Positions 11,870 to 28,264 of a stretch of 39,348 nt of DNA are shown piece by piece. A program made the position numbers and the translations under genes. The notes beneath the pieces are model-generated. The model saw only the letters and a list, made by a program, of their open reading frames with translations, made no database searches and was not told the DNA's origin. This DNA is from Candidatus Bathyarchaeota archaeon. Lineage in GTDB: Archaea > Thermoproteota > Bathyarchaeia > TCS64. How positions within the stretch are numbered: the stretch's first letter is position 1; each line of letters begins with the position of its first letter. The stretch spans positions 1 through 39,348 of the forward strand of contig JBDRQD010000056.1 in assembly GCA_043826455.1 (NCBI GenBank). Direction: 5' to 3'.

Positions 11870-12007
11870 ATGAGAAATGTCCACGACTGGGTAGTGGATA
11901 AGATCATCCGCATCTTCTTCAGGAAACAAGCTATTGATGCATCAGAGATCATGTTGTTGAGTATTGGCTTGCGGGGCGTTAAGCCTTTGAGAGCAAGTAA
12001 TAGGTAA
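11870..12007 (+). CDS. Candidate 45-aa small protein
   Basis: MRNVHDWVVDKIIRIFFRKQAIDASEIMLLSIGLRGVKPLRASNR; TTTAATAT box about 24 nt upstream. Confidence 0.35.
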   Translation: MRNVHDWVVDKIIRIFFRKQAIDASEIMLLSIGLRGVKPLRASNR

Positions 12008-12130
12008 GGCTCCACTTAGGTTGTGTCCAACGAGAAGCGAGAAATCTAATTTATCATGAAGATGATGGAACAGGAATCCCTATCATTAATATCTTCTACC
12101 AGCACACGTCAAGTATTGGTAGGCGTTACT

Positions 12131-14053: not shown

Positions 14054-14527
14054 GAGGTTTCCTAGGAGCCTCGTTTCCGGTGGATGCGGGTCTCCTAACC
14101 GTCTCTGGACATACGATGTAGCGTATAAACGAGACACCAAGACGTGGTAACATCTCACCGGAAGGAAAAGCATGAAGCATGAGATGGAATTTTTTTTCCG
14201 CCTTATCCCGTGCCGGCCAGGATAAGCCACCCAACGTAAAGGCCTGCGCCCACCCCAATGCCACGACGAGGGGGGAGGGGGGGTAGAGTAGAAAAACCGG
14301 AAACGGACGCCCCGCGCCAAAAGGAGGCCGGGAAACCCTCCTTTATGATCCCATTCTATGCAAAAATGCCGTCCATTCCACACAGAAACACGGTCATTTC
14401 AGCGCATCAGGCACGGTACTGATGTGCAAAAAACGTAGGGGAGTATCGATTTTAGGTAGAGAAAACCTCCTAAAATCGGAGCCCAGGGCCCCAGCGCCGA
14501 GCTGAAACAGAGGTTAACCAAACCCAT

Positions 14528-15001
14528 CTAAGATTTTTTTCCTTCAGTTTTCTTTTTCCTGTTCAGGAGCTTCCTGTACCAGAGGATGTCCGGGTGAAGC
14601 CACTCCCTGTTAATCATTAAACCCGTGTAGAAGCGGTCGCTCGAACGGGTGGGCCCGTAGATCCCGATCTCCGCCCCAGGGCCGTCGATCTTGAACTCGC
14701 CGAACTTCTCCGAGGGTGTGGGCCTAATCGACGGGTCCCTATAGGTGTGCTCCTGGTCACCAGCCTTCTCTTTCCTCAGCACGTTCCAGCACACCGGCAC
14801 GGCCACGAGGGCTGTGAACAGGATGACCATGAACCTGAACACTCCGCTGAAGGCCCCTGAGAAGATGATGGTCACCATCACCACCAAGAAGCTGACCGCC
14901 ACAGCCTTATCGCTAATGTCTCTCTCAGGTACGAGTCTGGACGCGCTCTCGAACCCGGGGCACCAGCCTAAATACTTTTGGCACATTCTACGAAGATTCA
15001 T
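14528..15001 (-). CDS. GWCP-motif (DUF1673-like) two-TM membrane protein
   Basis: N-terminal KYLGWCPGF, two TM helices, IRPT motif, basic C-terminus after WYR. Confidence 0.75.
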   Translation of the reverse strand: MNLRRMCQKYLGWCPGFESASRLVPERDISDKAVAVSFLVVMVTIIFSGAFSGVFRFMVILFTALVAVPVCWNVLRKEKAGDQEHTYRDPSIRPTPSEKFGEFKIDGPGAEIGIYGPTRSSDRFYTGLMINREWLHPDILWYRKLLNRKKKTEGKKS

Positions 15002-15509
15002 CTCTCTTCGACTTCTCCTTCTTCAGACGCTTGAAGTGCTTAATCCTGTCACGGTACCAGTCAATACTTATCCCTCTGAGGCCGACAACTTTGTATCGTT
15101 TGCCACCCCACAGAGGGTCAACGGCCATCGGGGTAAAGTCATTACTACTTATCCCCCAAGTAGGCGCGTCTGGTAGTGGCACATCGGGTAAATCGTCGAT
15201 AGATGTGGGTCGTATGGGGAACTCTTCAAGGTTCATAGCTTTTGGCTTAAAGTTTCTCCACGCATAAAGCATAATTGCCAAGGAGCCTAGTAGGAGCATC
15301 AGGGTCGCTCTGTTGGTGAACAGCGTTAGGTCCATCCCTCTGAGGCCCTTAGCCATGTTTAAAGCCAGCCAAAGCCCAGCGAGCCAGGCTATAACGAGGA
15401 GGGAGAGACCTTCCAGCTTGGAGGATAAGGGCCTCTCCTGGAAGCCGGCGGCAGCCTGGAAACCAGGGCACCACCCCAGTATCCTGCTGAAAAGGTTGTT
15501 TCTCTTCAT
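14988..15509 (-). CDS. GWCP-motif (DUF1673-like) two-TM membrane protein, paralog
   Basis: RILGWCPGF, two TM helices, IRPT, WYR plus basic tail. Confidence 0.75.
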   Translation of the reverse strand: MKRNNLFSRILGWCPGFQAAAGFQERPLSSKLEGLSLLVIAWLAGLWLALNMAKGLRGMDLTLFTNRATLMLLLGSLAIMLYAWRNFKPKAMNLEEFPIRPTSIDDLPDVPLPDAPTWGISSNDFTPMAVDPLWGGKRYKVVGLRGISIDWYRDRIKHFKRLKKEKSKRDESS

Positions 15510-15510
15510 G

Positions 15511-15972
15511 TCAAAGCCCCGGTAATATGGATGAGAAGATGCGGTGGGCCAGCTCGCTCGGAGGCAGCTTCAAGTCATCCTGTGATAAGTGTACTTCCCT
15601 CTCCCCCGCCTCCTCTAACAGCCTCTCCTTACAACGGGTCATCCACTTGCATAGGCCGCAGTTTGGCTGCTGGTAGTGCCAGGTCTGGACCCCGTTGCTG
15701 GGCGAGAAGGTGATGATGACCTGGTTCTTAGTGGCGGGGCTGTAGCCCAGGAGCACCCCTTTTGAGGAGTCCACGTACCTCGTCTCCACCATGTTGGACT
15801 CCGCGGTGTGCATGAGAGCCTGCTCCACCTTCTCCAGCATAATCCCCTCCGCGTCGTAGACCGCCTGCCGGGTGATGCCCAGGGTTCTACCTACCTCGGC
15901 CTTGCTGAGCCCCCTCAGCCTCATGGCCCATATCTCCAGCTGCCGGTCCGTTAGGTAGGCTGATGGTAACAT
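15511..15972 (-). CDS. HTH transcriptional regulator (Tfx/sigma70 region 4-like N-terminus) with C-terminal CxxC-x4-C
   Basis: LTDRQLEIW...GLSKAEVGRTLGITRQAV; GVQTWH...CGLCKWMTRC. Confidence 0.85.
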   Translation of the reverse strand: MLPSAYLTDRQLEIWAMRLRGLSKAEVGRTLGITRQAVYDAEGIMLEKVEQALMHTAESNMVETRYVDSSKGVLLGYSPATKNQVIITFSPSNGVQTWHYQQPNCGLCKWMTRCKERLLEEAGEREVHLSQDDLKLPPSELAHRIFSSILPGL

Positions 15973-15991
15973 CCTATGTAACTAAAACAAT

Positions 15992-16013
15992 CGTAAAGTA
16001 TTAAACCTTTACG
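15992..16013 (-). promoter_or_regulatory. Palindromic operator bracketing the TATA box of the HTH-GWCP operon
   Basis: CGTAAAG-TATTAAAC-CTTTACG; the minus strand reads AAAGGTTTAATA about 28 nt upstream of ATG 15972. Confidence 0.7.
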
Positions 16014-16051
16014 GAGGAGTTAAGTCGCTTGAACCCAAGTCACCTTTACCC

Positions 16052-16486
16052 ATGGCCCTGAAAGGAACCTACCTCCTCTGCATCCGCGTCAAGGAAACAA
16101 CAGAGATTAAGATAGGCGCACTAGGGCTCACACGATTTCCACACGGCAGATACGTCTACGTGGGCTCTGCCCTGAACAGCCTCGAGCCCCGCATCAATAG
16201 ACACATCAAAACCAGCAGAGGTGAACACCACGTCACTCACTGGCACATAGACTACCTTCTACGTGAGCCGGCCACCGAACTGGAAGCCGCGTACTTTACC
16301 GAAGCCCCGGAAAAACTAGAGTGCGAGTACGCGTCAGCAGTGGCAGACCACGGGACAGCCGTTAAAGGCTTCGGGTGCACCGACTGCAGGTGCGTAAGCC
16401 ATCTTTACAAAGTAGACGGCTGCGGCTTCATAGAAAAAATGGGTCTAAGGAAGTGGGCTAGAGGCTCTCCTCAACTTCCTGGATGA
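16052..16486 (+). CDS. GIY-YIG / DUF123 (Uri superfamily) nuclease
   Basis: KGTY.L, YVYVGSA, R..RH, HWHIDYL, GFG.TDC.C.SHL. Confidence 0.9.
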   Translation: MALKGTYLLCIRVKETTEIKIGALGLTRFPHGRYVYVGSALNSLEPRINRHIKTSRGEHHVTHWHIDYLLREPATELEAAYFTEAPEKLECEYASAVADHGTAVKGFGCTDCRCVSHLYKVDGCGFIEKMGLRKWARGSPQLPG

Positions 16487-16781
16487 GAGGTATGGCAAGC
16501 TCGGCGACGGTGACGCCGGTGCCCCACGCCATGAGGGCCGCGGCCTGTATCTCCTTCTTGCTGATCCCAGCCTTGAGGGCCTCCACCACGAAGTGGCGTA
16601 GAGCCACAGGGTCCCTCGTGACGCTGTAGATGCCTATCCTGACAAGGAGCGCGGTCCTCTGGTCGAGGACGCCGTCGACGTTGATCTCCCGGCTCAGGCT
16701 CATCCATGCCTCTGCCACCTTGGGCGTCTCCTCGCTGAATATCTGCCAAACATTTTTCGCTACCATATTGAACACCGGCAC
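16458..16781 (-). CDS. Carboxymuconolactone decarboxylase (CMD) family protein
   Basis: GVLD.RT..LV.IG...ALKAGISKKEI; no CxxC. Confidence 0.85.
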   Translation of the reverse strand: MPVFNMVAKNVWQIFSEETPKVAEAWMSLSREINVDGVLDQRTALLVRIGIYSVTRDPVALRHFVVEALKAGISKKEIQAAALMAWGTGVTVAELAIPLIQEVEESL

Positions 16782-17004
16782 CTAGATGGCTTCGTGAAGT
16801 TATAAGTGTGGTCTATTGACGTTGAGACGCGAATCATGGTTATTTACAGTCCTATAGCCTCCAGCCAGAGGTGAATATTCTACTGGACAAAGCAGGTACA
16901 GAAAGATTATTCAATGCAGACAGGATTGTCCATAGTAGAACAGCCATTACAGTGTTTATAAGGAAGTATACGCTGAAAGGCAAAGAACCAGGGAGGAGCA
17001 GAGG

Positions 17005-17640
17005 ATAGGAAAGGAGTTCATCCGGGACGTCGACACCATCATAGAAAAGATCGCTGACGAGCTCACCGAGGAGGAGTTCGACAAGATCATGCTGCTCCGT
17101 GAGGAGATCATGGGCAAGTATCACCGGAACGAGGTTAAGATCAACCACACGGTCATGGAGATTATCTGCGCCAAGTACCTCATCCAGTTGGGCTTCGACG
17201 TTTCCTTGGAGCACAGCCTGAACAGCATAAGCACTGACATCTACGCCCAAAAGGGGATGGGCAGCCTCATAGTGGAGGTGGAGACAGGCTTCGTGCCCCC
17301 GGACCACGCCCTGGACCCCATGACCTACCTCAAGGCCAGGGTCACCAGCAAGATAACCCGGTACAGCTCCTACGCCAACAAGTTCGTGTTGGCCAGCCCC
17401 CCACACTACATCATGCAGGTGCCCCCCAGCCTAACCAAGCCCCCCCGGTTCAGGACGGAGGAAGAGGTGGCCCACATGAAGGAGCTGTGCGACCTCTACT
17501 ACACGAGCCCGCCCGTATCCTTTGAGGAGATAAGAAACGCTAGGATCCACAGCATATACGTGGTGGACGTGGACAACGGGGCCCTCCGTGAGTGGGACGT
17601 CAACGAGTACATGGGCAAGACCGCCCTCTGGACCCTTTAA
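17005..17640 (+). CDS. Conserved archaeal hypothetical protein with PD-(D/E)XK-like motif (probable ATA start)
   Basis: Frame open from 16939; GGAGGAG precedes ATA 17005; KINH.VME, TDIYA.KG..IVEVETGFVPP.HALDP. Confidence 0.8.
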   Translation: MGKEFIRDVDTIIEKIADELTEEEFDKIMLLREEIMGKYHRNEVKINHTVMEIICAKYLIQLGFDVSLEHSLNSISTDIYAQKGMGSLIVEVETGFVPPDHALDPMTYLKARVTSKITRYSSYANKFVLASPPHYIMQVPPSLTKPPRFRTEEEVAHMKELCDLYYTSPPVSFEEIRNARIHSIYVVDVDNGALREWDVNEYMGKTALWTL

Positions 17641-17687
17641 CAGGAAAAGTTTAAGAAAAGGTGCTCCGGCAATAGGTGGGAACGTAT

Positions 17688-17939
17688 ATGGATGTTTCCG
17701 GTGGATTCCTGGCCCTGGGCCTAACCCTGACAGTCATAGGCGTCATCATGGTGTACATCAGCCTGAGGGCTAGGCCATCAGAGGTGCAGTCCAGGGGCGT
17801 AGGGGTTATCTTCATCGGCCCAATCCCCCTAGTGATGGGCGGAGACAGAAAGTTGGTGCTGGCAGCCCTCGGCGTAGCGGCAGTGATAATGGTGGTAATT
17901 ATAGCCAGGGCGGCCGAGTCAAACCTAATCGGATGGTAA
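17688..17939 (+). CDS. DUF131/TIGR00304 membrane protein
   Basis: GVGVIFIGPIPLVMG signature. Confidence 0.9.
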   Translation: MDVSGGFLALGLTLTVIGVIMVYISLRARPSEVQSRGVGVIFIGPIPLVMGGDRKLVLAALGVAAVIMVVIIARAAESNLIGW

Positions 17940-17948
17940 AACCTGAAC

Positions 17949-18605
17949 ATGAGCAGAAGATGCATGGTTTGTGGCAGAGGAGGCGCCGAGATCCTGTGCG
18001 CCAGATGCGGCAGCATCATCTGCGACAGATGCTATGATGATGAAGCCGATACATGCGTCGTTTGCTCCGGGAAAAGGTCTGGAAACAGGAAGGTCCTCAA
18101 CCGCCCCGCGCTCCTTGTGGGCGGATTCATGCTGGTGCTGCTGGGCTTGATGGTCACATCGTGGGCTTTCATCCCCCAAGGAGGAGCCACTGTGGTGCTC
18201 TTTCCCTTCGTGTTCAACGGAGTAGGCGGCCCCGTTGCTCTGCTCCTGAGCCTGGTTTTCTTCGCGCTGTTCAGCCTGTCCAGCCTGCTACCATTGTACT
18301 TGCTGCTTAAAAGAAATGATTACACTGAATGGGACGAAGGACTCTACAATCTTTACGACTCGGTGGTATCGGGGGGAAATACCACGGAGTCCCTGGAGTA
18401 TATGATAACCACGGAGATACCGAGGGGCCTCAAGGACTCCATATACTTGGAGGAAGACGACGACTCCATCATACTCATGAGCAGCAAGGACACTAACTTC
18501 GTCAAGACCTATAACCTGCCAGAGGACTACCACGTGGACGAGGTGGAGTCCGAGTTCGAGGGCAGCTTCCTTCTGGTGAGGGTCCGCCTCACGAGGGACC
18601 TCTAG
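17949..18605 (+). CDS. Zn-finger + membrane segments + Hsp20-like C-terminal domain
   Basis: Four CxxC pairs; TM segments with a DUF131-like GATVVLFPF; C-terminal TEIP...F.KTYNLP...EFEGSFL.V. Confidence 0.7.
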   Translation: MSRRCMVCGRGGAEILCARCGSIICDRCYDDEADTCVVCSGKRSGNRKVLNRPALLVGGFMLVLLGLMVTSWAFIPQGGATVVLFPFVFNGVGGPVALLLSLVFFALFSLSSLLPLYLLLKRNDYTEWDEGLYNLYDSVVSGGNTTESLEYMITTEIPRGLKDSIYLEEDDDSIILMSSKDTNFVKTYNLPEDYHVDEVESEFEGSFLLVRVRLTRDL

Positions 18606-18646
18606 CAACAGATATAATCCGCCGGCACACCAGATTCTCGATACCT

Positions 18647-19297
18647 TTGCCCGCAGTCTACGACCTAGGCGAGTACATTGAATCCCTGAAAGGCGTAAGC
18701 CTCATAGTTGGCGACGGCCTCTGCAGCAACATCTACGTAATAGGACGGGAAAAGGCCACCATAATAGACACGGGAGTGGGCAACAGGGCCAACCCCCTGT
18801 GGCCCCAGTTCGAGGAGCTGGGCATCAGACCCAGGAACATCGACAAGGTGGTAATCACCCACGCCCACCACGACCACGCCATGGGCGCTTTCCTCATCCT
18901 GGAGAGAGCCCGCCCCAAGGTGTACGTCCACGAGAAGGACACCACCTACATAGCCACAAGGTTGGGTGATGCCCTGGTCAGGGTGAATGAGGGCGACGTC
19001 ATCGAGACAGAGCTCTGGCCTCTGGAGGTCTACTGGACGCCCGGGCACACAGAGGGAGGCATGTGCCTCTACAACCCCGAGCGCAAGATCCTGTTCAGCG
19101 GCGACACGGTTTTCCCTGACGGCTACTACGGCCGCTACGACGGCGAGAGCGGCAGCTTCGAGGCTATTGTTGACAGCCTCAGGAAGCTGGACGGCCTGGA
19201 CGTGGAGGCGCTGCTCTCAGGCCACGGCTCACCGGTAATCACGGACGGCAACAAGCACATAGACTTGGCTCTGAGGAACGCAACCCGGTGGGGTTAA
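18647..19297 (+). CDS. MBL-fold metallo-hydrolase
   Basis: IDTG, THAHHDH, TPGHT, FSGD, GHG. Confidence 0.93.
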   Translation: MPAVYDLGEYIESLKGVSLIVGDGLCSNIYVIGREKATIIDTGVGNRANPLWPQFEELGIRPRNIDKVVITHAHHDHAMGAFLILERARPKVYVHEKDTTYIATRLGDALVRVNEGDVIETELWPLEVYWTPGHTEGGMCLYNPERKILFSGDTVFPDGYYGRYDGESGSFEAIVDSLRKLDGLDVEALLSGHGSPVITDGNKHIDLALRNATRWG

Positions 19298-19337
19298 AAC
19301 CTTAAGCAAGGTACGCGTCATACATTCCTCGATTGAT

Positions 19338-20372
19338 TTGGTCGAGAAGAACCTGGACCTGAGAAGCGACACAGTCACATGGCCCACACCCGAGATGAGA
19401 GAGGCATCCTACAAGGCCAAGCTGGGGGACGACGTCTACGGTGACGACCCCACCGTCAACGAGCTGGAGGCTCTGAGCGCAGAGATCTTCGGTAAGGAGG
19501 CGGGGTTGTTCGTCACCAGCGGCACCATGGGCAACGCGGTCGCCGTGTTGGCTCACACCCAGAGGGGCGACGAGATAATCCTGGAGCAGACCAGCCACAT
19601 CTACGTGAACGAGGTAGGCGGTCTGGCGGTAATGGGCCAGTTAATGGCCCGCACCATCCCCGGTGAGAAGGGTTGGATGAGGCCCGACGACATCAAGAGA
19701 GCCGTCCGCGCAGACAACATCCACTACCCCCGCACCAGCCTCCTCTGCATAGAGAACACCCACAACTCCGCCGGCGGAATAGCCCTCACTCCCAAGCAGA
19801 TGAAGAGCAACTGGGACATGGCCAAGGAACACAGCCTAGGAGTCCACCTGGACGGGGCCCGCATCTTCAACGCCGCTGTGGCCCTTAAGGTGGATGTCAA
19901 GGAGCTGGCCAAGTACGCGGACACCATCCAGATATGCCTCAGCAAAGGCCTCTCGGCCCCCGTGGGCAGCATAGTCGTGGGCCCCGAGGACCTGGTGAAA
20001 AAGGCCCGGAAGTACAGGAAGATGCTGGGCGGAGGAATGAGGCAGGCCGGCATCATAGCGGCCCCAGGCATCCTGGCCCTCACCAAGATGGTGGACAGGC
20101 TGGAGGATGACCACAGGAACGCCAAGCTCCTGGCAGCCGGCCTCCAGAAACTTGGCGTCAAGGTAGTGAACGAGGTCCAGACCAACATGGTCTACATCGA
20201 CTTCAGCGCCGTTGGCTGGAAGGGCAGCGACTGGACCAAGGCCTGCGCCAAGCTGGGCTGGAAGAGCCGTGCGGGCGACAACGCCACCGGCACCAGGCTG
20301 GTGACCCACTACGGGATCGAAGGCGAGGACATCAAGAGCTTCCTCGATGGCATAGGGAAGCTCATCCCCTAA
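19338..20372 (+). CDS. ltaE: Low-specificity L-threonine aldolase
   Basis: DLRSDTVT, GDDVYGDDPTV, SGTMGN, HLDGARIFNA, CLSKGL.AP.GS, GGGMRQAG. Confidence 0.95.
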   Translation: MVEKNLDLRSDTVTWPTPEMREASYKAKLGDDVYGDDPTVNELEALSAEIFGKEAGLFVTSGTMGNAVAVLAHTQRGDEIILEQTSHIYVNEVGGLAVMGQLMARTIPGEKGWMRPDDIKRAVRADNIHYPRTSLLCIENTHNSAGGIALTPKQMKSNWDMAKEHSLGVHLDGARIFNAAVALKVDVKELAKYADTIQICLSKGLSAPVGSIVVGPEDLVKKARKYRKMLGGGMRQAGIIAAPGILALTKMVDRLEDDHRNAKLLAAGLQKLGVKVVNEVQTNMVYIDFSAVGWKGSDWTKACAKLGWKSRAGDNATGTRLVTHYGIEGEDIKSFLDGIGKLIP

Positions 20373-20406
20373 CCCTTTTTACCGTGAAACAGCACAAATA
20401 AGATTC

Positions 20407-21447
20407 ATGATTGTTATACCCGCCGACAAGCTGAGGGAGCTGGGCGTACGCATATACACCGCCCAGGGGACCCCCGAGGAGACGGCCAGGTTCATCGTGG
20501 AGACCCTGGTGGAGGCCAACCTCACGGGCCACGACAGCCACGGCGCCCACTACTACCTGGGGTACACCGACAGGATCAGTAGAGGCTTCATAGACGTCAA
20601 GGCTGAGCCGGCCATCGTCAAGGAGACGCCATCGTCAGCCCTCATAGACGGGCGGTGGGCCTTCGGCCAGGTCACAGCCATGAGGCTCACAGAGGTAGCC
20701 GTGGAGAAGGCCAAGGAATGCATGGTGGCGGGCGTCGGAGCCTTCAACTGCAACCACATAGGGCGCCTCGGCTACTACACGGAGTGGGCGGCCAAGCACG
20801 ACATCATTGCCACCATGTACGTCAACGTGGGGAACCCCAGCGTCAGCGTATACCAGGGCCTGGGCAAGGCCTTCGGCACCAACCCCTACAGCGTGTCCGC
20901 GCCCTCGGGATGCGATACGCCGTTCCTGGTGGACTGGGCCACCAGCGTCGTGGCCCACGGCAAGATATCGGTGGCCAGGGCCAAGCGCGCCAGGATTCCC
21001 ATCAACTGGACCAGGGACAGGTACGACAGGGTAACGGATGACCCAAACGCCATATACGATGGGGGCTGGCTGCTGCCCTTCCAGGAGTACAAGGGCTACG
21101 GCATGGCCATGGTCTGCGAGCTCCTGGGCGCCGTGTTGACGGGGTCAAGGATAGGGTTAAGCGGCGTGGCTGAGCCGCCCTCCCCCAACGGGGTCTTCAT
21201 GCTGGCTGTGAACCCTGAGGGCTTCGCGGGGCTGGACGCCTTCAAGATGAACACGGCGGAGCTCTTGGAGAAGGTCAAGAGGCTGCCCGCTGAGGCGGGT
21301 AGACGCATCCTTGTGCCCGGGGAGCCCGAGAAGGAGTCCAAGGCTCAGCGCCTCAGGGACGGAATACCGATACCGGATGACACCTGGAACCAGATTGAGG
21401 TCCTATGCAAACACCTCAACGTAGACCTGGGCGATATCCACAAATAA
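20407..21447 (+). CDS. Ldh_2 family oxidoreductase (malate/L-sulfolactate dehydrogenase-like)
   Basis: ANLTGHDSHG, NHIGRLG, GTNP, D.ATS, YKGYG, VPGE.E. Confidence 0.92.
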   Translation: MIVIPADKLRELGVRIYTAQGTPEETARFIVETLVEANLTGHDSHGAHYYLGYTDRISRGFIDVKAEPAIVKETPSSALIDGRWAFGQVTAMRLTEVAVEKAKECMVAGVGAFNCNHIGRLGYYTEWAAKHDIIATMYVNVGNPSVSVYQGLGKAFGTNPYSVSAPSGCDTPFLVDWATSVVAHGKISVARAKRARIPINWTRDRYDRVTDDPNAIYDGGWLLPFQEYKGYGMAMVCELLGAVLTGSRIGLSGVAEPPSPNGVFMLAVNPEGFAGLDAFKMNTAELLEKVKRLPAEAGRRILVPGEPEKESKAQRLRDGIPIPDDTWNQIEVLCKHLNVDLGDIHK

Positions 21448-21471
21448 CCTCCACCTCCTATTCTCGTTGAA

Positions 21472-22650
21472 ATGAGCCTGGGGTTCCCGACTGAGGAGAT
21501 ACTGGAGGGAAGGGCCAGGGTTCTGGTGCCCAAGCTGGACACATCGAGCGGTGAGCCCCTGCAGCACCTCATGAGCGAAGCCCCAGTGTTCTACAACCCC
21601 GTCATGGCCACCAACAGGGACACGGCCGTCCTCGCCCTCAGAGCCCACACCCGGGGCGGAAAAGAGGTATCAGTCTGCGAGCCCATGTGCGGAACCGGCG
21701 TGAGGGGCATAAGGCTGGCCCTAGAAACGGACAAAGTCCAGCAGGTGGTGATGGGCGACCTGAGCCCCACGGCCCTCAAGGTCGCCCAGGCCAACGCGGC
21801 CCTGAACAGCGTCAGCCACCTGGTGAGGCTGCGGCTGCTGGACGCCAGCCTCCTCATGAGCCTCCACGGGTACCCGGGCGGCAGGTTCAGCTACCTTGAC
21901 GTGGACCCATACGGGTCCCCTGCCCCCTTCATCGACTCCGCCGTCACCGCCACCGAGAACCACGGCCTCCTAGCCGCCACGGCCACCGACATGGCCCCTC
22001 TGTGCGGCGTCAACCCGAGGGCCTGCCTCAGAAAGTACGGGGGCCTCCCATTATCCGGGGAGCTCTGCCACGAAGCCGCTCTAAGGCTCTTGGTCGGTGC
22101 CCTGGTGCGGGGCTCAGCAGTCCACGAGGTAGCCGCCACACCCGTCTTCTCCTACTATGCCGACCACTACGTCAGGGTCTACGTCCGCCTAGACAGGGGC
22201 GCCAAGCGAGCAGACAAGGCCCTCGAACAGATGGGGTACATGAGGCACTGCCAGAGGTGCCTCCACCGTGAGTCCTCTGGGGACGGCCGAAAGGAAAGGT
22301 GCCCCATCTGTGGCGCCGAGATGCATGTAGGGGGCCCCATGTGGATGGGTGAGCTGGCTGAGGAAGGCTTCACCGAAGCCATGTTGGTGGAGGCTGAGGC
22401 CCTTGTGCATCTTGTCGGCTCCAGGGCCACAGGCCTGGTGAAACAGGTGAGGGCAGAGATCGGGTACGGCCCCGGCTTCTACGAGATAGACAAAATATGC
22501 AGCTTAGCGGGCGCGCCCAGCATACCCACAGATGAGGCACTTAACAGGCTCAGGGAAGCCGGGTTCAGGGTCACCATGGCCCACTACAGTGACAGGGCGA
22601 TAAAAACCGATGCAGGAGCCGATGAGCTCCGGAAACTGCTGGGCGGCTAG
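21472..22650 (+). CDS. trm1: tRNA (guanine-26-N2)-dimethyltransferase
   Basis: VFYNP.M..NRD, GTGVRGIR, DVDPYGSP, TATD.APLCG, Zn ribbon, GPMW.G. Confidence 0.95.
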   Translation: MSLGFPTEEILEGRARVLVPKLDTSSGEPLQHLMSEAPVFYNPVMATNRDTAVLALRAHTRGGKEVSVCEPMCGTGVRGIRLALETDKVQQVVMGDLSPTALKVAQANAALNSVSHLVRLRLLDASLLMSLHGYPGGRFSYLDVDPYGSPAPFIDSAVTATENHGLLAATATDMAPLCGVNPRACLRKYGGLPLSGELCHEAALRLLVGALVRGSAVHEVAATPVFSYYADHYVRVYVRLDRGAKRADKALEQMGYMRHCQRCLHRESSGDGRKERCPICGAEMHVGGPMWMGELAEEGFTEAMLVEAEALVHLVGSRATGLVKQVRAEIGYGPGFYEIDKICSLAGAPSIPTDEALNRLREAGFRVTMAHYSDRAIKTDAGADELRKLLGG

Positions 22651-23150
22651 GCCACCTTGTCGAAGCTCTTGGCGGGGGCGTTGCAGATGGGGCACTTCTC
22701 CGGAGGCTTGTTCTCCACAGTGTTGCCGCACACCTTGCAGACGTAGAACTCCACTTGAGGGATGTCCCTCTTCTGTTTCAGGGCCTCGGCCGCCTTCTTG
22801 TAGAGCCCCGCATGGATCTTCTCCACCTCGTTGGCTATGTTGAAGCTCCAGCTTGCCTGGTTCTCCCCCTCCTCCGCGGCGTCAGCCAGGAACTCAGGGT
22901 ACATGGTCTTGAACTCGTACGTCTCCCCTTCTACGGCTTCCTGCAGGTTCTCGGCCGTGCCCTTGATGCCGCCCATGATACGCAGGTGGTTGTGGGCGTG
23001 GATGGTCTCGGCCGCCGCGGCGGCTCTGAACAGCTTGGCTACCTGGGGGTAGCCCTCGTCTTCCGCCTTCTTGGCGAAGGCCAGGTACTTCCTGTTGGCC
23101 TGGCTCTCACCGGCGAAGGCCGTTTTCAGGTTTTCCTTGGTCTTGGTCAT
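22647..23150 (-). CDS. rbr: Rubrerythrin
   Basis: AFAGESQA, E..HA, GETYE..MYP, EK.H, C-terminal CKVCG...CPIC. Confidence 0.95.
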   Translation of the reverse strand: MTKTKENLKTAFAGESQANRKYLAFAKKAEDEGYPQVAKLFRAAAAAETIHAHNHLRIMGGIKGTAENLQEAVEGETYEFKTMYPEFLADAAEEGENQASWSFNIANEVEKIHAGLYKKAAEALKQKRDIPQVEFYVCKVCGNTVENKPPEKCPICNAPAKSFDKVA

Positions 23151-23243
23151 TTACATCACAATGAAGGATTATGTGGAATGGCGGCGTATAAACTGGACAG
23201 GCTAAACCTTCATAAACCGCAGCCGTGTCTTGAGCATTGAAAA

Positions 23244-23954
23244 ATGTCGAATCGTTGGATCCATGAGCGTAAGAGCGACCACTACCATCTGAAGGCAGTG
23301 GAGGAGGGATACAGGAGCAGGGCCAGCTACAAGCTCAAGCAGATCCACAACAAGTTCAGAGTATTCGACGACGCGCGGAACATCCTCGACCTTGGCGCGG
23401 CGCCCGGAGGTTGGCTCCAGGTGGCCTCGGAACTGGCTGCAGACGATGGCCTTGTGCTTGGCGTGGACCTAGAGGAGATCGAGCCGCTTCCAGCAGCCAA
23501 CGTCATCACCATTAAAGGGGATGTCAGGGACCCTGAGATACAGGCCGAGATACTGGAGAGCTTCAACGGTAAAGCGGACGTCATCCTCTCGGATATGGCT
23601 CCAGACGTCATAGGCCAGTGGGAGTTGGATCAGTACAGGCAGATTTATCTGGCCCGGATCGCTCTGCGCCTAGCGGACAAGCTCCTGAAGGAGGATGGGT
23701 GGTTTGTTGTCAAGATTTTCCAGGGCGGCGAGCACGTCAGGTACATCAGGGAGGTCAAGGACGTGTTCGAGTTTGTCAAGAACTATAAGCCAGCGGCTAG
23801 CCGCAAGGGGAGCGCTGAGCGCTACATTGTGGCTCACAGGCTGAAGCCTGACAGGAAGCTGCCGCCGGAGAAGACGAAGGAAGACTGGTTCCTTGAGGAG
23901 GATGAAGGACCCATCCCGGGGGACCAGCTCTTCGACGAGCCTGAGAAGAGTTAA
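23244..23954 (+). CDS. rlmE: 23S rRNA Um2552 methyltransferase
   Basis: YRSRA.YKL, DLGAAPGGW, SDMAP, K.FQG, KP.ASR..S.E.Y. Confidence 0.95.
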   Translation: MSNRWIHERKSDHYHLKAVEEGYRSRASYKLKQIHNKFRVFDDARNILDLGAAPGGWLQVASELAADDGLVLGVDLEEIEPLPAANVITIKGDVRDPEIQAEILESFNGKADVILSDMAPDVIGQWELDQYRQIYLARIALRLADKLLKEDGWFVVKIFQGGEHVRYIREVKDVFEFVKNYKPAASRKGSAERYIVAHRLKPDRKLPPEKTKEDWFLEEDEGPIPGDQLFDEPEKS

Positions 23955-23998
23955 GCCCAAAAAACGTGTCGGATTTCAGGAGAAGCGTGGCGGGATGG

Positions 23999-24874
23999 TT
24001 ACGCGCCTAGTATTCTTCGCACCTTTTCCTCGAAGCCCACGTCCTTAACCCTGTGAGAGCCGTACTGCACCTCTTCCAGGCTGTGGCCCATGGCTAGCCC
24101 CAGAAGCTGCAGATAGAACAGCACTGGCGTCTTGAAAGGGATGCCCAGCTTCCTCGCGGCCATCATCTGGCCCGTGTCATACTGTTGGTAGCACTGGGGG
24201 CAGATCACGGTGACGCAGTCGGCCTGCGCCCTCCTCATGCTCTCCAGCCTGTTCCTCAGCCACGCGTACCCTTCTTCTTGATGCCCGTAGGCTCCGATCA
24301 TCCAGCCGCAGCACAGGTTCTTCAGGTCGTACTCGATGCTGCTGGCTCCTGTGGCGGAGACCAAGTCGTCCAGCAGGTGGGCCTCCAGCCCGTACCGGTT
24401 GGAGAAGTGGCACCCGGTGTGGGCGGCCACACGGAGCCCCTCCAGGGGGACCTTCACGGCTTGACTGATCCTTTTGACCCCTATGTCCTCGTCTAGAACC
24501 TGCACGAAGTGCTTCACCCTTGCCCGGCCCGTGAACTGGTGGCCTGTCTCTGAGAGAGCCTCGTTTACCCTGCTCCTAAGCTCGGCGTCCTCCAGCTCAT
24601 CCACCGTGTGCTTCAGGGTGTAGTAGCAGCCGTTGCACAGGGTCAGGATGTCAAGGCCCTGCTCCTCAGCGAGGCTTATGTTTCTCGCGGCTATGGTCAG
24701 CCAGGTGAGCTTCTCATGAAGACTGAAGCCGGTGGGCTCCGGGCAGCACGTGAAACCGCCCACGTCGTGGAGCTCGACGCCCAGCTCGGGAAGAGTCTTT
24801 CTGGCGACGTGCTCGATGTGGGGAGCCCTAGAGGGAATGAAGCAGCCCCTGAAGAAAGCGTATTTCTTGGTCAT
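23999..24874 (-). CDS. hdrB: Heterodisulfide reductase subunit B-like protein (two CCG domains)
   Basis: GC...TCCP...AARN...CNGC and H.GCH...CCG...CPQC..QYD.GQ, QLLGLAMG. Confidence 0.9.
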   Translation of the reverse strand: MTKKYAFFRGCFIPSRAPHIEHVARKTLPELGVELHDVGGFTCCPEPTGFSLHEKLTWLTIAARNISLAEEQGLDILTLCNGCYYTLKHTVDELEDAELRSRVNEALSETGHQFTGRARVKHFVQVLDEDIGVKRISQAVKVPLEGLRVAAHTGCHFSNRYGLEAHLLDDLVSATGASSIEYDLKNLCCGWMIGAYGHQEEGYAWLRNRLESMRRAQADCVTVICPQCYQQYDTGQMMAARKLGIPFKTPVLFYLQLLGLAMGHSLEEVQYGSHRVKDVGFEEKVRRILGA

Positions 24875-25695
24875 CGGGCCCCACCTTCCTCGGCGCGTGC
24901 ACGCCTAGTCTTCTCCGCGATGATGGCCAGGTCTGATGTGTCCGCCTCCTCCAGCGGGGGCAGGCCGAGCCTTCCTCGGGCTGAGTGGGTCATGGATGAG
25001 GCGGGGTAGACCGTGCCAGTCTTTATCACATTATCTATCTCATCCTGGACCAGCTCCTTTGCTAGCGGCCTGAAGGCCCCGGTGGGGCATACCTCGGCGC
25101 ACTCGCCGCAGGAGGCGCACCCCGACTCCAGGAGGGCCTGCTCGACGCCTGAGACGATGGTCATGTGGTAGCCTCTCCCCTCGAAGTTGAGTACCCCGTA
25201 GTGCCTGAGCTCATTGCACGCGTTGACGCATCGCTCACACAGTATGCACTTGTCGGGGTCGCGGACGATGATCGGGTTTCTGGTGTCGGTCGCCCTGCTT
25301 GGCCTGGGCTTTTGAAGCAGCTTTTTCCTGTGGGGCTCAACGCCCAGCTCTTCCGCGAGGTCCAGGAGGACGTTCTCCCCGTCCTTGTCAAGCGTTGCCG
25401 CGTCCACTGGGAGGTTGTCCAGCAGTAACTCGACGACGGCACGCCTCGATTCAAGCACACGATTGTTTGCGGTCTCCACGGTCATGCCCTTGTAGAGTGG
25501 TGTCGTGCAGGCGGCCTCAAGCCTATCCTTTCTACCTATGTCCACGACACATATCCTGCACGCGCCCGTGGGCTTGAGCTTGGGGTGGGTGCAGAGGGTG
25601 GGTATGTGTATACCGTTCTCCTGGGCCACCTCCAGTATGGTCTGGTCGGGTCGCCCCGTGACCTTCTTTCCGTCGATGGTGATCTCCAAGCTCAT
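24871..25695 (-). CDS. HydA/NuoG N-terminal-like Fe-S subunit (2Fe-2S + 2x4Fe-4S, no catalytic domain)
   Basis: ITIDG...IPTLC...GACRIC...AC; KCILCERC..AC; CASCGEC.EVCPTGA; ends about 65 aa later; TGATG overlap with the upstream gene. Confidence 0.9.
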   Translation of the reverse strand: MSLEITIDGKKVTGRPDQTILEVAQENGIHIPTLCTHPKLKPTGACRICVVDIGRKDRLEAACTTPLYKGMTVETANNRVLESRRAVVELLLDNLPVDAATLDKDGENVLLDLAEELGVEPHRKKLLQKPRPSRATDTRNPIIVRDPDKCILCERCVNACNELRHYGVLNFEGRGYHMTIVSGVEQALLESGCASCGECAEVCPTGAFRPLAKELVQDEIDNVIKTGTVYPASSMTHSARGRLGLPPLEEADTSDLAIIAEKTRRARAEEGGAR

Positions 25696-27683
25696 CACCA
25701 TTCCTCCTTGATTGCCCCGAACGGGCACTTGCTCTCGCATCTTCCACACTTGATGCACGTCTTCGCGTTGATGCTCGCCTTCTTCATGGTCTTCCCAGTC
25801 TTCGCGTCCTTGTTCGCGGTGAAGCTTATAGCGCTGGAGGGGCACTCCTTGGCGCATAGCTCGCAGCCCTTACACATCTCAGCATCCACCGTGTACCCCT
25901 TCATGAAGTGTTTACACAGGTGCGATGGGCATGTGCCCCCTGTGATGTGGGCGTCGTATTCGTCCCTGAAGTACATGAGGGTGCTGGTCACAGGGTTGGG
26001 GGCCGTCCGGCCCAAGGCGCAGAGGGATGAGTCGGCTATCACCTTCGAGAGTCTCTGAAGAGTCTCGATGTCCTCTAAGGTTCCCTCTCCCTCCGTTATT
26101 CGCTCCACCACCTCCAGCATGGCCTGCAGCCCTACCCTGCAGGGTGTGCACTTGCCGCAGGACTCGGCCGTGGTGAAGTTCAGGAAGTATCGGGCCAGGT
26201 CCACTATGCATGTGTCCTCGTCCAGGACGATTATTCCGCCGGACCCCATGATGGCGCCGGCGTCCTGCAGCGACTCGTAGTCCAGGGGCAGGTCAAGCCT
26301 GCTCTCGGGCAGGCAGCCGCCCGACGGTCCGCCTATCTGGACTGCCTTGAACCTTTTATCGTCCGGGACGCCGCCTCCTATATCAAAGATCAGCTGCCTC
26401 AGGGACATGCCGATGGGCACCTCGGCGGCCCCCGTTCTCGTCACCTTGCCTGCCAGGCAGTACACCTTGGTCCCCTTGCTCTTCTCGGTGCCCACCTTGG
26501 CGTACTCCTCGGCCCCCTTCACGATGAGGGCTGGGATGTGGGCCAGGGTCTCGACGTTGTTTATGGTCGTGGGTTTATCCCAGAGGCCCTTGGTGGCCGG
26601 GAAGGGCGGCCTCGGTCTGGGCATGGCCCGCTTCCCCTCTATGGCCGCCATCATGGCCGTCTCCTCGCCGCAGACGAAGGCGCCCGCGCTGAGCATCGGC
26701 TTAACCTCGAGGCTGAAGCCTGAGCCCAGTATGTTGTCACCGAGTAACCCGTACCTTTTAGCCTCCTTTATCGCGAGGGTCAGGTGCTCGGCCATCATGG
26801 GCTTCTCGGCCCTGACGAAGATGTAGCCCTCGCTCGCCCCTATGGCGTATGCGGCTATGATGAGTCCCTCGATCACCTTGTGGGGGTCTCCCTCAGCCGT
26901 GAGCCTGTTCATGAAGGCGCCTGGGTCGCCCTCGTCGGCGTTGCATATCATATACTTGACGTCGCCCTGGACCTGCCTGCAGAGCTTCAGCTTCAGGCCC
27001 GTCGGGAATCCGGCTCCGCCTCGGCCCCTCAGGCCAGACTTGGAGACCTCATCGATGACCGCGTCGGGGGTCATCTCCTTCATGACCCTGGACAGGGCTG
27101 CGTATCCGCCTGAAACTATGTACTCCTCAATGGATTTTGGGTCTATTACGCCACAGTTACGAATAACGTCTCTCTCCTGGTGCTTGAAGAAGGGAAGCTC
27201 GCTGAGGAGGGGCGCATCCCCTTCGCCCATCATCGTCCCCGTCCTCGTCCTCAGGGCGAAGGCCCCTGCAACTGAGCCGCCCAAATAAGCGTCCAGTAGC
27301 TCCTCGACTCTGTCGGGTGTCACGCCGCTGTAGATGGCCGGCGGGCTCCCTTTATTCTCGACCTCCACCATGACCTCGGCGTAGCAGGAGCCCATGCACC
27401 CGGTCCTTACCAGCTTCGCTGTAGGATACTTCTTGGAGAGCTCCCTCTTCAAGGCGTCGTACACCGCCTGGGCTCCTGACGCGAGGCCGCAGGTGCTGGT
27501 GCCCACAGTCACGCGGAGCCCGCCTATCCCGTACAGAGTCTCCTCAACGGCCTCCAGTTTTCTGGCTCTACAGCCGTCATCGCTGTGGCATAACGGGCCC
27601 TGCGTTCTGCATGGTATGAAGTCCGGGCACGGGTTCTCGGCCGAGTGGCTGCACTTGTCGCAGCACTTGTTCACGAGCCTCAT
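25695..27683 (-). CDS. HydB/NuoF-type FMN/NADH subunit with thioredoxin-like 2Fe-2S domain and C-terminal 2x4Fe-4S
   Basis: TCG.ASGA, GCMGSC, GRGGAGFPTG, CNADEGDPGAFM, CGEETA, ESCGKCTPCR, SLC.LG, H...TCP..LC, two CxxCxxCxxxCP. Confidence 0.95.
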   Translation of the reverse strand: MRLVNKCCDKCSHSAENPCPDFIPCRTQGPLCHSDDGCRARKLEAVEETLYGIGGLRVTVGTSTCGLASGAQAVYDALKRELSKKYPTAKLVRTGCMGSCYAEVMVEVENKGSPPAIYSGVTPDRVEELLDAYLGGSVAGAFALRTRTGTMMGEGDAPLLSELPFFKHQERDVIRNCGVIDPKSIEEYIVSGGYAALSRVMKEMTPDAVIDEVSKSGLRGRGGAGFPTGLKLKLCRQVQGDVKYMICNADEGDPGAFMNRLTAEGDPHKVIEGLIIAAYAIGASEGYIFVRAEKPMMAEHLTLAIKEAKRYGLLGDNILGSGFSLEVKPMLSAGAFVCGEETAMMAAIEGKRAMPRPRPPFPATKGLWDKPTTINNVETLAHIPALIVKGAEEYAKVGTEKSKGTKVYCLAGKVTRTGAAEVPIGMSLRQLIFDIGGGVPDDKRFKAVQIGGPSGGCLPESRLDLPLDYESLQDAGAIMGSGGIIVLDEDTCIVDLARYFLNFTTAESCGKCTPCRVGLQAMLEVVERITEGEGTLEDIETLQRLSKVIADSSLCALGRTAPNPVTSTLMYFRDEYDAHITGGTCPSHLCKHFMKGYTVDAEMCKGCELCAKECPSSAISFTANKDAKTGKTMKKASINAKTCIKCGRCESKCPFGAIKEEW

Positions 27684-28192
27684 CGCCTGTCAGCTCCATC
27701 CGCTTTATACTTTGATAGAATGCGTCGAACCTTCGCGGGGTCCAGGTTGCCGTAGAACTCCTCATCGATCTTCATAACGGGCGCGAGGCTGCAGGCCCCG
27801 ACGCATCTGACCTGTTGAAGAGTGAACACGCCGTCCTTGGAAGTGTCTGTCGGCGGTGTGATCCCCAGCTCGCCTAGTATGAGCTCGTTGACCTCCAGCG
27901 ACCCCTTGACGTGGCAGGCTGTGCCCCTGCACACAGTGATCATGTGCCTGCCCTGGGGTCGGAGTCTGAACTGGTGGTAGAACGTAGCCACGCCGTAGAT
28001 GTGGCTGGTGGGCAGCCTCAGGAGCTGTGAGACCCTCTCTAGGGCCTGTTCGGGGAGGTACCCTAACTCTGACTGGATATCCTGGAGGAGGGGGATAAGC
28101 ATGCTCTGCTTATTATCGTGATGACGATAACGCTCAAAGGCACGATCAATAACGAGCCTAATACTATCAGTAGCTTCAGACATATTCGCCAC
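27680..28192 (-). CDS. HydC/NuoE-type 2Fe-2S subunit
   Basis: LIPLLQ.IQ...GYLP, GVATFY, VC.GTAC, CVGAC.LAP. Confidence 0.95.
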   Translation of the reverse strand: MANMSEATDSIRLVIDRAFERYRHHDNKQSMLIPLLQDIQSELGYLPEQALERVSQLLRLPTSHIYGVATFYHQFRLRPQGRHMITVCRGTACHVKGSLEVNELILGELGITPPTDTSKDGVFTLQQVRCVGACSLAPVMKIDEEFYGNLDPAKVRRILSKYKADGADRR

Positions 28193-28264
28193 GTCGGCTT
28201 TCCTATAATGTGCATTCCATCCATTTTTAAAGGTTACAAGCCTGTTAAATTAAGCTGAAAAAAA

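Follow-up and report, generated by a model that had tools for sequence, protein, structure and literature searches.

Four ORFs on the minus strand of the window (the whole 39,348-nucleotide stretch of bathyarchaeial DNA analysed here), namely bfuC, bfuB, bfuA and hdrB, form one conserved operon, and their products very probably assemble into a physical complex, BfuC-BfuB-BfuA*-HdrB, in which the short BfuA (BfuA*) is, as judged from its sequence, a chimera of the FeS domains of an Fdh-BfuA with an HdrC C-terminal tail in its last ~55 residues. Sequence comparison demonstrates the composition, chimeric A subunit, synteny and ancestry of this "Hdr-Bfu" unit, and our main reading of its function, to which we assign a probability of about 0.5 by analogy with characterised enzymes, is that electrons from NADH and from reduced ferredoxin converge on HdrB, which would reduce a sulfur carrier. 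The enzyme is apparently undescribed: the portions of the literature available to our search contain no description of a Bfu-HdrB unit or of an HdrA-less HdrCB-FdhA unit, which agrees with a preceding sequence-only reading of this DNA that knew of no complex of this composition. The features are as follows.

28224-28231, minus strand: TTTAAAAA, a TATA-like box that lies 32-39 nt upstream of the GTG start of bfuC.
27680-28192, minus strand: bfuC (HydC/NuoE-like), start GTG, with an ATG at 28183; thioredoxin-like [2Fe-2S] C1 cluster.
25695-27683, minus strand: bfuB (HydB-like, 662 aa), with FMN/NAD site, B1, B2 His/Cys site, B3/B4 ferredoxin domain and an N-terminal CCxxC prefix.
24871-25695, minus strand: bfuA (274 aa).
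25063-25695, minus strand: N-terminal part of bfuA (residues 1-211), with [2Fe-2S] and 2x[4Fe-4S]; the His-ligated A3 motif is absent.
24871-25062, minus strand: C-terminal tail of bfuA (residues 212-274), which shares homology with the C-terminal segment of HdrC and is the predicted dock for HdrB.
23999-24874, minus strand: hdrB-like subunit (291 aa), with two CCG (non-cubane cluster) domains and a divergent substrate pocket.

The genes overlap at each junction (ATGA, TGATG, ATGA), as had been read from the letters, while the 328-aa version of bfuA proposed by the ORF finder (start 25857) was set aside because its upstream extension is absent from homologues. The TATA-like box claimed earlier is indeed present at 28231-28224, but it is weak evidence alone because a search of the window with a loose TATA pattern gives 17 matches, and its sole support is its place in an AT-rich gap; no promoter came out of a sigma-70 scan, which is what one expects of an archaeon. 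The next gene after hdrB, rlmE (23244-23954), is convergent to the operon, and the unit therefore ends with hdrB. A rubrerythrin (22647-23150) was rejected as a further subunit, since it lies beyond this convergent gene and, of the 12 related loci that were listed, accompanies the operon in 1. Contigs of run X1 are identical to the stretch, with no differences, and X1 may be the source of the DNA. One metatranscriptome contig of a relative crosses the A-hdrB junction, but it is not proof of transcription, as the coverage extends to neighbouring genes and the sample may contain DNA.

The bfuC and bfuB products retain, by sequence, every Bfu (HydABC-type) signature that was checked. BfuC matches PF01257 (E = 2.7e-49), and its cysteines 85, 90, 127 and 131, numbered from the ATG at 28183, are the four expected for a thioredoxin-like [2Fe-2S] cluster. 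In the BfuABC family, BfuB comprises FMN-binding, NADH 4Fe-4S, SLBB and C-terminal 4Fe-4S domains (PMC9304861); the family matches listed for this BfuB include PF01512, PF10589, Fer4 and NCBIfam NF040902, SLBB is not among the five of 12 families listed but the stretch expected to hold it can be aligned gap-free with 7t2r_B and 9n5u_B, and its best PDB matches are bifurcating HydB/NfnB chains (7t2r_B, E = 6e-209). The B2 site ligands of A. mobile, C438, C476/Thr, H525, C531 and C536 (PMC9304861), correspond by alignment to C492, T530, H579, C585 and C590. Likewise, T. sibiricus NfnB has the AFM motif, Phe281, GGPSG, Asp195 and Glu286 (NADH over NADPH) (PMC12018979), and their equivalents here are A256/M258, F336, GGPSG, D250 and E341 (alignment to 9n5u_B). 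The features of bifurcating members previously ascribed to the B subunit were all recovered: the ADEGDPGAFM and PPFP motifs, a B2 site with His and Cys ligands, and 2x[4Fe-4S] at the C-terminus.

The A subunit contains 12 cysteines in total, and its residues 1-211 share 52-57% identity with residues 1-208 of the ~900-aa Fdh-BfuA of relatives. The A3 motif H-x3-C-x2-C occurs in 0/29 chimeric rows, PF10588 matches the long BfuA relatives and none of the short As scanned, and domain scans agree with the earlier statement that A has neither an H-cluster nor a molybdopterin domain. The accompanying statement that hdrA and hdrC are missing is correct as regards genes, neither being among the 37 window ORFs scanned, but has to be amended for the HdrC C-terminal tail fused to A. 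The homology of this tail to HdrC is visible only with a profile: the NCBIfam search of A left the tail undetected, and when residues 140-274 of A were compared with the PDB as a single protein, the 60 matches listed were HydA/FdhA-type chains without any HdrC. A tail profile built from chimeric rows only had HdrC as its best non-self match in the genome (E = 4e-10, among 37,358 six-frame segments), and 18 HdrC matches were obtained in the 20 sister loci. With a mixed tail alignment (8 HdrC tails and 2 chimeric tails) a PDB HdrC was the first match; because it contains 8 HdrC tails, this alignment can assign the tail to its family but gives no independent confirmation.

The hdrB product carries PF02754 twice, and the two CCG cluster motifs recognised before belong to a pair of CCG domains in which none of the ten cluster cysteines is missing (C11, 43, 44, 80, 83, 155, 188, 189, 225 and 228), which are invariant in 35 rows. 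Its best Foldseek match is 5odc_B (TM 0.90), and it scores 259.4 bits against the curated HdrB model TIGR03288, below the cut-off of 345.15. The signature CCPEP, CCGW-x4-YG and CPQC marks this HdrB; among the top 120 homologues CCGW is found in 120 and CCGW-x4-[YF]G in 119, and CNGC is kept in 119/120, the CoM-site-blocking His of EMO being absent. In methanogen HdrB the CoM sulfonate site is formed by the backbone NH of Gly46 and Gly198; T48 and I193 stand at these positions, where the contacts are backbone ones and the side-chain change is not decisive. CoB is bound there by Arg14, Arg201, Arg240 and Phe233 (5ODR; PMC13261682), and one of the three arginines is kept (Arg14 = R16), Arg201 being replaced by Y196, Arg240 by T234 (a weaker test, M. 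marburgensis HdrB having Val at that position too) and Phe233 by Q227. The conserved Trp191 and Tyr196, at the positions of methanogen Ala196 and Arg201, could shut off the pocket in the way described for BamD. With two of three CoB-binding arginines absent, CoM-S-S-CoB, formerly a candidate acceptor, is doubtful as the substrate. The host had been taken as probably non-methanogenic, and no McrA, nor any DsrC, ComA or FeFe hydrogenase, was found in its genome (97.7% complete).

Among 109 loci, hdrB lies next to A in 30/30 that bear the tail and in 0/79 that do not, some of the latter being cut by contig ends, so the adjacency is conserved. In the BfuB and HdrB trees (quick searches, no bootstrap, midpoint roots) each partner forms its own clade: Hdr-linked BfuBs (SH-aLRT 95) are nested among Fdh-Bfu BfuBs, and Bfu-linked HdrBs (99) lie inside an Fdh-linked clade, whose other members sit in HdrA-less hdrC-hdrB-fdhA operons. 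The fusion was found in only a single Bathyarchaeia family of uncultured sediment archaea; a phylum sample contained it in 1/401 genomes, namely its own, and no independent fusion appeared among the best 150 representatives, of which 1 covered the full profile and 0/149 others had the tail. We propose that the unit arose once, by recombination: a BfuA of the Fdh type would have shed the molybdopterin domain together with the A3 cluster and acquired, from an hdrC-hdrB-fdhA operon, both the HdrC C-terminal tail and hdrB. Derivation of the contig-80 FdhA from Fdh-BfuA by reciprocal swap was not supported (49-58% identity).

Structure prediction docked A onto HdrB with a score of 0.78 versus 0.01 for the best control, which may partly reflect likeness to solved HdrC-HdrB; the mark set for such models is reached by 116/157 solved pairs and 2/215 mismatched pairs. 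The runs share at least 93% of contacts, with partner pLDDT of at least 87, and AlphaFold2 of A alone gave pLDDT 60, under 50 over residues 126-212. The predicted interface includes the tail (213-267) and A 189-201, facing HdrB 155-156 and 186-198. The product would be a soluble four-subunit complex in which the tail clamps HdrB, with the second [4Fe-4S] motif of A against the HdrB C-terminal cluster loops, such that the tail and clusters of A are predicted to replace both HdrA and HdrC.

The earlier interpretation is supported as regards a dedicated BfuABC-HdrB unit, given the synteny, tail and interface model, and lacks support as regards the direction of electrons. In the Bfu enzymes that have been characterised, the partner of high potential is NAD(H), that of low potential is ferredoxin, and BfuA provides the connection to a third substrate (PMC9304861, PMC12018979, PMC12318220), which would place HdrB on the merged, mid-potential arm. 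The core would oxidise NADH and reduced ferredoxin together, via FMN/B1, the A clusters and the non-cubane clusters, and HdrB would reduce a disulfide or similar sulfur carrier other than CoM-S-S-CoB, probably common to the HdrC-HdrB-FdhA enzyme, so that the complex would act as a coupled electron sink. BamGHI provides a precedent for such confurcation by a Bfu module (bioRxiv 10.64898/2026.04.10.717634), and this reading is supported because all ten cysteines and an open CNGC are kept, unlike in the wire-type EMO/BamD domains. By our own arithmetic it releases free energy with every acceptor between -140 and -300 mV, but 19-104 kJ would be wasted by spending ferredoxin on a high-potential acceptor.

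The main rival, which we consider rather unlikely, makes HdrB a relay and not a catalyst, either between BfuA* and a separately encoded FdhA/HdrCB (directly or by a low-potential carrier) or to ETF; in the former version two pieces would rebuild the formate <-> NAD+ + ferredoxin bifurcation that is the job of one Fdh-BfuA in relatives. Both halves of the unit descend from formate dehydrogenase systems, hdrC-hdrB-fdhA is present in 5/7 chimera genomes (the other two are 68% and 72% complete), and within the family the HdrB clade occurs in 0/17 genomes with verified Fdh-BfuA versus 26/54 others (Fisher p = 1.2e-4, overstated by kinship). Formate can take the mid-potential place in a Bfu reaction (PMC9304861, Table 1), the CCGW-type signature is nearly uniform in the top homologues, and non-cubane domains are wires to ETF in BamD and EMO, the host having two ETF pairs. 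A relay is harder to reconcile with the missing EMO-type His and the full ligand sets of both clusters; moreover, in 21 of the 26 genomes that carry an Fdh-linked HdrB the chimera is missing, hence the HdrC-HdrB-FdhA enzyme works without it, and reducing NAD+ and ferredoxin is beyond the reach of an ordinary thiol pool.

The direction first proposed, in which NADH is the mid-potential donor and its electrons part at the flavin, some going to a disulfide of high potential at HdrB and some to ferredoxin, is improbable. FMN does lie between B1 (A/HdrB side) and C1 (ferredoxin side) (PMC12018979), the reaction would yield -15 kJ with an acceptor near -140 mV, NADH at -320 and ferredoxin at -420, and the literature, as far as accessible, gives no such assay of a Bfu enzyme with a high-potential third substrate. 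Yet NAD is the high-potential acceptor in PMC9304861 and PMC12318220, which also rule out an Etf/Nfn/Hdr-type flavin mechanism for BfuABC, and the free energy is zero or positive in 14/16 cases, spanning -15 to +15 kJ even at a -140 mV acceptor; this direction is therefore unsupported. Marginally less probable still is that the complex oxidises NADH with its acceptor in an uncoupled way, as a diaphorase plus HdrB whose ferredoxin arm is vestigial or regulatory: NADH by itself suffices for acceptors above about -280 mV and alone reduced 68% of isolated BamGHI, but 11/11 Hdr-linked BfuB rows keep AFM and PPFP as well as the His of B2 and the two C-terminal clusters, and B2-B5 are missing from non-bifurcating homologues (PMC9304861). 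That hdrB is a mere neighbour, joining a canonical HdrABC-Mvh while BfuABC acts for some distant partner (NiFe hydrogenase, HdrAC), is very improbable despite several HdrA (on other contigs), MvhD and NiFe large-subunit genes in the genome, given the common lineage of A's HdrC tail and HdrB, the 30/30 synteny and the interface model.

The unit would give the Bfu family an Hdr-type third module and exemplify module swapping, a ~55-residue HdrC tail on BfuA recruiting HdrB and bypassing HdrA. As a small soluble complex, possibly with a high-potential acceptor on the BfuA arm, it offers a test of whether Bfu enzymes split mid-potential electrons only or those of NADH too. More tentatively, Bathyarchaeia might use as a redox currency some thiol-disulfide or low-potential sulfur carrier other than CoM/CoB, and a dedicated HdrB clade would read it, plugged without HdrA into formate dehydrogenase or, via the HdrC-tail graft, into a Bfu core; Hdr-Bfu would couple this carrier to NAD and ferredoxin, possibly with NADH driving ferredoxin reduction at the Bfu FMN. 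The two HdrA-free, expressible enzymes allow one to ask what Hdr reduces in Bathyarchaeia, a question left open in PMC7886697.

Type 2 Bfu enzymes (Wor-, FdhFeFe-, Por-, Codh- and Bam-Bfu; Schut et al. 2022, PMC9304861) likewise join a BfuBC core to an extra subunit for their third substrate, and the BfuA of these enzymes, with A1, A2 and A4 only and no catalytic domain, is matched by the short BfuA, which lacks A3/A5; however, an Hdr-type module is absent from their 12 listed functions, whereas here the extra subunit is a CCG protein and A is fused to an HdrC tail. The closest relatives are the type 1 Fdh-Bfu of related Bathyarchaeia (60-69% identity for BfuB, 52-60% for A residues 1-208), from which the present unit differs by loss of the molybdopterin domain and A3 and gain of the HdrC tail and HdrB. 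Methanogen HdrABC-MvhAGD and Fdh-Hdr (5ODC, 7BKB, 8RVU) share the HdrB fold, ten cysteines and HdrC tail as partner, but Hdr-Bfu has no HdrA flavin or HdrC cubane domain, and Arg201, Arg240, Gly198 and Phe233 are all replaced. The class II benzoyl-CoA reductase BamBCDEFGHI (bioRxiv 10.64898/2026.04.10.717634) also combines a Bfu module with an HdrBC-like protein of altered pocket, BamD, but interposes HdrA (BamE) and an MvhD adaptor (BamF), neither of which is in the Hdr-Bfu unit; BamD has an altered distal cluster and reduces ETF, and in EMO a His beside the Cys81 ligand blocks the CoM position, whereas Hdr-Bfu HdrB keeps all cluster ligands and CNGC. The HdrA-less hdrC-hdrB-fdhA operon of Bathyarchaeia, the putative source of the tail, shares the same HdrB clade and pocket signature, but there a free FdhA feeds a full HdrC in a three-gene unit devoid of the flavin module.

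Four genes with overlapping stop and start codons were confirmed from the sequence at the place given by the sequence-only reading; they lie on the minus strand and are organized as follows.

23999..28192, minus strand: the unit bfuC-bfuB-bfuA-hdrB
bfuC, minus strand: match to PF01257
bfuB, minus strand: PF01512, PF10589 and C-terminal 2x[4Fe-4S]
bfuA, minus strand: ATG start at 25695 (274 aa), agreeing with homologues; only [2Fe-2S] and 2x[4Fe-4S] domains
hdrB, minus strand: two CCG domains

Since the gene after hdrB is convergent, the transcript holds no further gene beyond hdrB. In the genome, which measures 2.95 Mb at 97.7% completeness and 7.2% contamination, bfuB and bfuC each occur once and HdrB-like genes of full length six times, and those relatives that have names are Bathyarchaeia. 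Contig 55 of the same genome bears a large hdr/mvh cluster (11644-25500) that encodes MvhDGA, several HdrA and three pairs of HdrCB, and hence the host also owns conventional HdrA-fed systems. A rubrerythrin gene lies two genes past hdrB (22647-23150), a linkage which is not conserved among related loci; Rub-Bfu is known from the literature.

Over residues 1-208, the A subunit shares 52-60% identity with the N-terminal part of relatives' ~900-aa BfuA proteins with a molybdopterin domain (Fdh-BfuA), one of which was checked and scores above the formate dehydrogenase cut-off of TIGR01591. The His-ligated A3 motif of the long proteins is present in 0/29 aligned short As (the query and 28 of 36 homologues, i.e., 29/37 sequences, leaving out fragments and near-duplicates), and past the last cluster cysteine, where the long proteins continue into the molybdopterin domain, the short As bear a different tail of ~55 residues. 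When a profile built from short-A tails only was searched against 37,358 six-frame segments of the same genome, its best non-self match (E=4e-10) was the gene upstream of hdrB on contig 80, and the following two matches (E 0.09, 0.1) were likewise ORFs directly upstream of hdrB genes. Judged by its matches, the contig-80 protein is an HdrC: TIGR03290 is its best NCBIfam match (below cut-off), and its best PDB matches are HdrC chains, in an alignment that spans the tail. The profile also recovers 18 HdrC tails in 20 sister loci of the type hdrC-hdrB-fdhA (E 2e-14 to 9e-8), and a mixed alignment of ten tails, searched against 177,635 PDB sequences, has HdrC chains in the top two places (E=5e-4). 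From these matches, the end of A is assigned as an HdrC segment, and by sequence comparison the subunit is a chimera of an Fdh-BfuA N-terminal part and an HdrC C-terminal segment. In the 5ODC structure, the matching HdrC segment wraps around HdrB.

An interface between A and HdrB, which the sequence-only reading had anticipated, is predicted by fold modelling, with a complex score of 0.78 against 0.01 for the best of three controls; such a mark is attained by 116/157 solved complexes and 2/215 mismatched pairs, and the tail portion of the score may stem from likeness to solved HdrC-HdrB. The model runs share at least 93% of contacts with a partner pLDDT of at least 87, and the interface includes, besides the tail, A 189-201 (the second cluster motif) as well as HdrB 155-156 and 186-198, stretches containing ligands of the C-terminal non-cubane cluster. 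In FeFe hydrogenase structures, the motif that corresponds to 189-201 binds A4, the cluster next to the catalytic domain. PMC9304861 describes A4 as the exit used in Type 2 Bfu enzymes, in which BfuA has no catalytic domain and an extra subunit handles the third substrate. The model supports binding of A to HdrB.

A-hdrB adjacency, a further expectation of the same reading, is kept: a search with the A alignment gave 109 loci (41 from GTDB, 68 from metagenomes), and hdrB is the next gene in all 30 that bear the tail (six shortened by a contig end), although some of these are near-duplicated across the two collections, so that 30 is not the number of independent lineages. All four genes are visible in 8 of the 30. 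In the remaining 79 loci, some of which end too early to tell, hdrB was found downstream of A in none. The full-length chimera occurs in 7/401 genomes of the class, all from one family (2 genera), with one more cut by a contig end, and in 1/401 genomes of a phylum sample, namely the genome studied. In a search of 1.84 billion 50%-identity representatives, one of the best 150 matches spans the whole profile, and the tail is absent from the other 149. This distribution points to a single origin and a narrow range. One locus, titled Desulfaltia bacterium (L105), is 89-94% identical to the window proteins and lies among the archaeal genes that flank the unit here as well (rlmE, rubrerythrin, trm1); it is probably a mislabelled bin rather than a transfer.

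Phylogenies, likewise proposed earlier, place Hdr-linked BfuBs and Bfu-linked HdrBs each in a clade of their own. A quick ML tree built from 63 rows nests the Hdr-linked BfuBs (SH-aLRT 95) among BfuBs of Fdh-type operons, and in a quick HdrB tree of 66 rows, the 24 Bfu-linked rows (99) fall within a wider clade (99), whose 28 rows stand at 50-60% identity. The wider clade is housed in hdrC-hdrB-fdhA operons without hdrA in the unit, in 20/20 wide loci (one with fdhA shortened) and 23/23 narrow loci, two overlapping sets; all three FdhA proteins checked pass TIGR01591. The same operon is present in the genome studied (contig 80, 616-1985, and contig 14, 10660-12198, which overlap by 141 bases) and in 5/7 chimera genomes. 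The simplest history would be that an Fdh-Bfu operon recombined with one of the type hdrC-hdrB-fdhA. The hdrA-free arrangement, seen also in L244-L263, is conserved across several Bathyarchaeia families, with the same CCGW..YG pocket in HdrB; no description of this three-gene operon was found in the literature searched, and it may encode an HdrA-free formate:acceptor oxidoreductase.

Within the family of the genome studied (71 genomes), Fdh-BfuA and hdrC-hdrB-fdhA look mutually exclusive: the wider HdrB clade is found in 0/17 genomes with verified Fdh-BfuA versus 26/54 others (operon context checked in 23/26). The p value of 1.2e-4 is too strong, as related genomes are not independent observations and scoring covered no more than six candidates in each genome. 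A genome of another family (G145) seems to carry both. A 3-keto-5-aminohexanoate cleavage (Kce/BKACE)-like gene pair adjoins hdrC-hdrB-fdhA in the genome studied and the Bfu-HdrB operon at three other loci, a hint of former adjacency between these two operons. The pairs are:

L050:2262-3975, Kce/BKACE-like pair
L151:3239-4953, Kce/BKACE-like pair
L152:3913-5447, Kce/BKACE-like pair
L190:1489-3203, Kce/BKACE-like pair

In another Bfu-HdrB locus, an hdrC 75% identical to that of contig 80 lies divergently just upstream of bfuC (L153:4711-5481), and no hdrB of its own was seen within the locus.

The B and C subunits are assigned by homology to the Bfu type. The top PDB matches of BfuB are the bifurcating subunits 7t2r_B, 9n5u_B, 9bov_B and 8oh5_B (E 6e-209 to 4e-201), non-bifurcating FdsB and Nqo1 ranking behind at E 1e-122 or weaker. 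The B2 ligands C438, C476, H525, C531 and C536, given for A. mobile in PMC9304861, correspond to C492, T530, H579, C585 and C590. The signature residues A201, M203, F281 and D195 of T. sibiricus, and E286, which selects NADH (PMC12018979), correspond to A256, M258, F336, D250 and E341. All 11 Hdr-linked BfuB rows retain AFM, PPFP, the B2 His and both C-terminal clusters. BfuB opens with a cysteine-rich CCxxC prefix (27543-27683), which scores above the cut-off of NF040902 and seems to be missing from some close relatives. Other BfuBs include a 1036-aa protein that ends in a GltD/Nfn-like FAD domain in place of the ferredoxin domain and precedes an Fdh-type BfuA (L045:6558-9668), and variants with SGESS replacing CGEET and no PPFP motif, followed by a ~200-aa BfuA (L046-L048).

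In the Bfu wiring described in PMC9304861, PMC12018979 and PMC12318220, the third substrate connects via BfuA to FMN/B1/C1, with NAD as the high-potential and ferredoxin as the low-potential partner. HdrB would occupy the third-substrate position, and we infer, at a rough probability of 0.5, a direction and substrate in which NADH and reduced ferredoxin would be confurcated onto a sulfur acceptor at HdrB.

The modelled HdrB (pLDDT 91.6) has the HdrB fold (Foldseek TM 0.90 to 5odc_B), and with two CCG domains and all ten cluster ligands kept, the earlier observation that both CCG motifs persist holds. Of the 5ODR contact residues listed in PMC13261682 (Arg14, Arg201, Arg240, Phe233, Gly46, Gly198), Arg14 is retained, while the others become Tyr, Thr, Gln, Thr and Ile, respectively. 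Where methanogens have the loop CCGAGG, 119 of the 120 best homologues carry CCGW-x4-[YF]G, a motif common to Bfu-linked and Fdh-linked HdrBs. Given these changes, and since a search of the genome for McrA, ComA and DsrC found none of them, CoM-S-S-CoB is an unlikely substrate. Two preprints (10.64898/2026.04.10.717634 and 10.64898/2026.08.18.745454) describe HdrB-like domains serving as wires to ETF, whose pocket contains His, Trp and Tyr and whose distal cluster is altered. The window HdrB lacks the blocking His and seems to keep both clusters whole, which speaks for catalysis; its conserved Trp and Tyr favour a closed or very different pocket.

Confurcation onto a sulfur acceptor is favoured over other readings by Bfu wiring and energetics; a relay through HdrB to formate dehydrogenase or ETF is the next most likely reading. 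Calculated with textbook potentials, joint electron transfer from NADH and reduced ferredoxin to an acceptor at -140 to -300 mV would yield -104 to -19 kJ, whereas the mode in which NADH drives the reduction of acceptor and ferredoxin alike comes to -15 to +46 kJ, with a negative value in 2/16 cases. The latter direction, preferred by the sequence-only reading, also runs against Bfu wiring and is improbable; an uncoupled diaphorase is rated marginally lower still. Mere adjacency of hdrB to Bfu genes is scarcely credible.

No description of the Bfu-HdrB unit was found in the literature searched, which included passages of PMC9304861, PMC13261682, PMC12018979, PMC12318220, PMC8407382, PMC5736913, PMC9012536, PMC11406978, PMC11631310, PMC7886697 and the preprints 10.64898/2026.04.10.717634 and 10.64898/2026.08.18.745454; the sequence-only reading likewise knew of no described complex of this composition. 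The term 'Hdr' is absent from one 8,449-character supplement text of PMC9304861, outside which Supplementary Table 1 and figures may lie, and the phylogeny of non-cubane domains in the EMO preprint could include the window HdrB clade. With composition, fusion, synteny and ancestry established at the sequence level, the unit is a real and conserved Type 2 Bfu variant, to all appearance not described before, and a domain graft would fix its partner. It is assembled from known modules, has a narrow range and a putative activity. The nearest described Bfu link to an HdrB-like protein, according to 10.64898/2026.04.10.717634, is class II benzoyl-CoA reductase, in which HdrA and an MvhD adaptor intervene.
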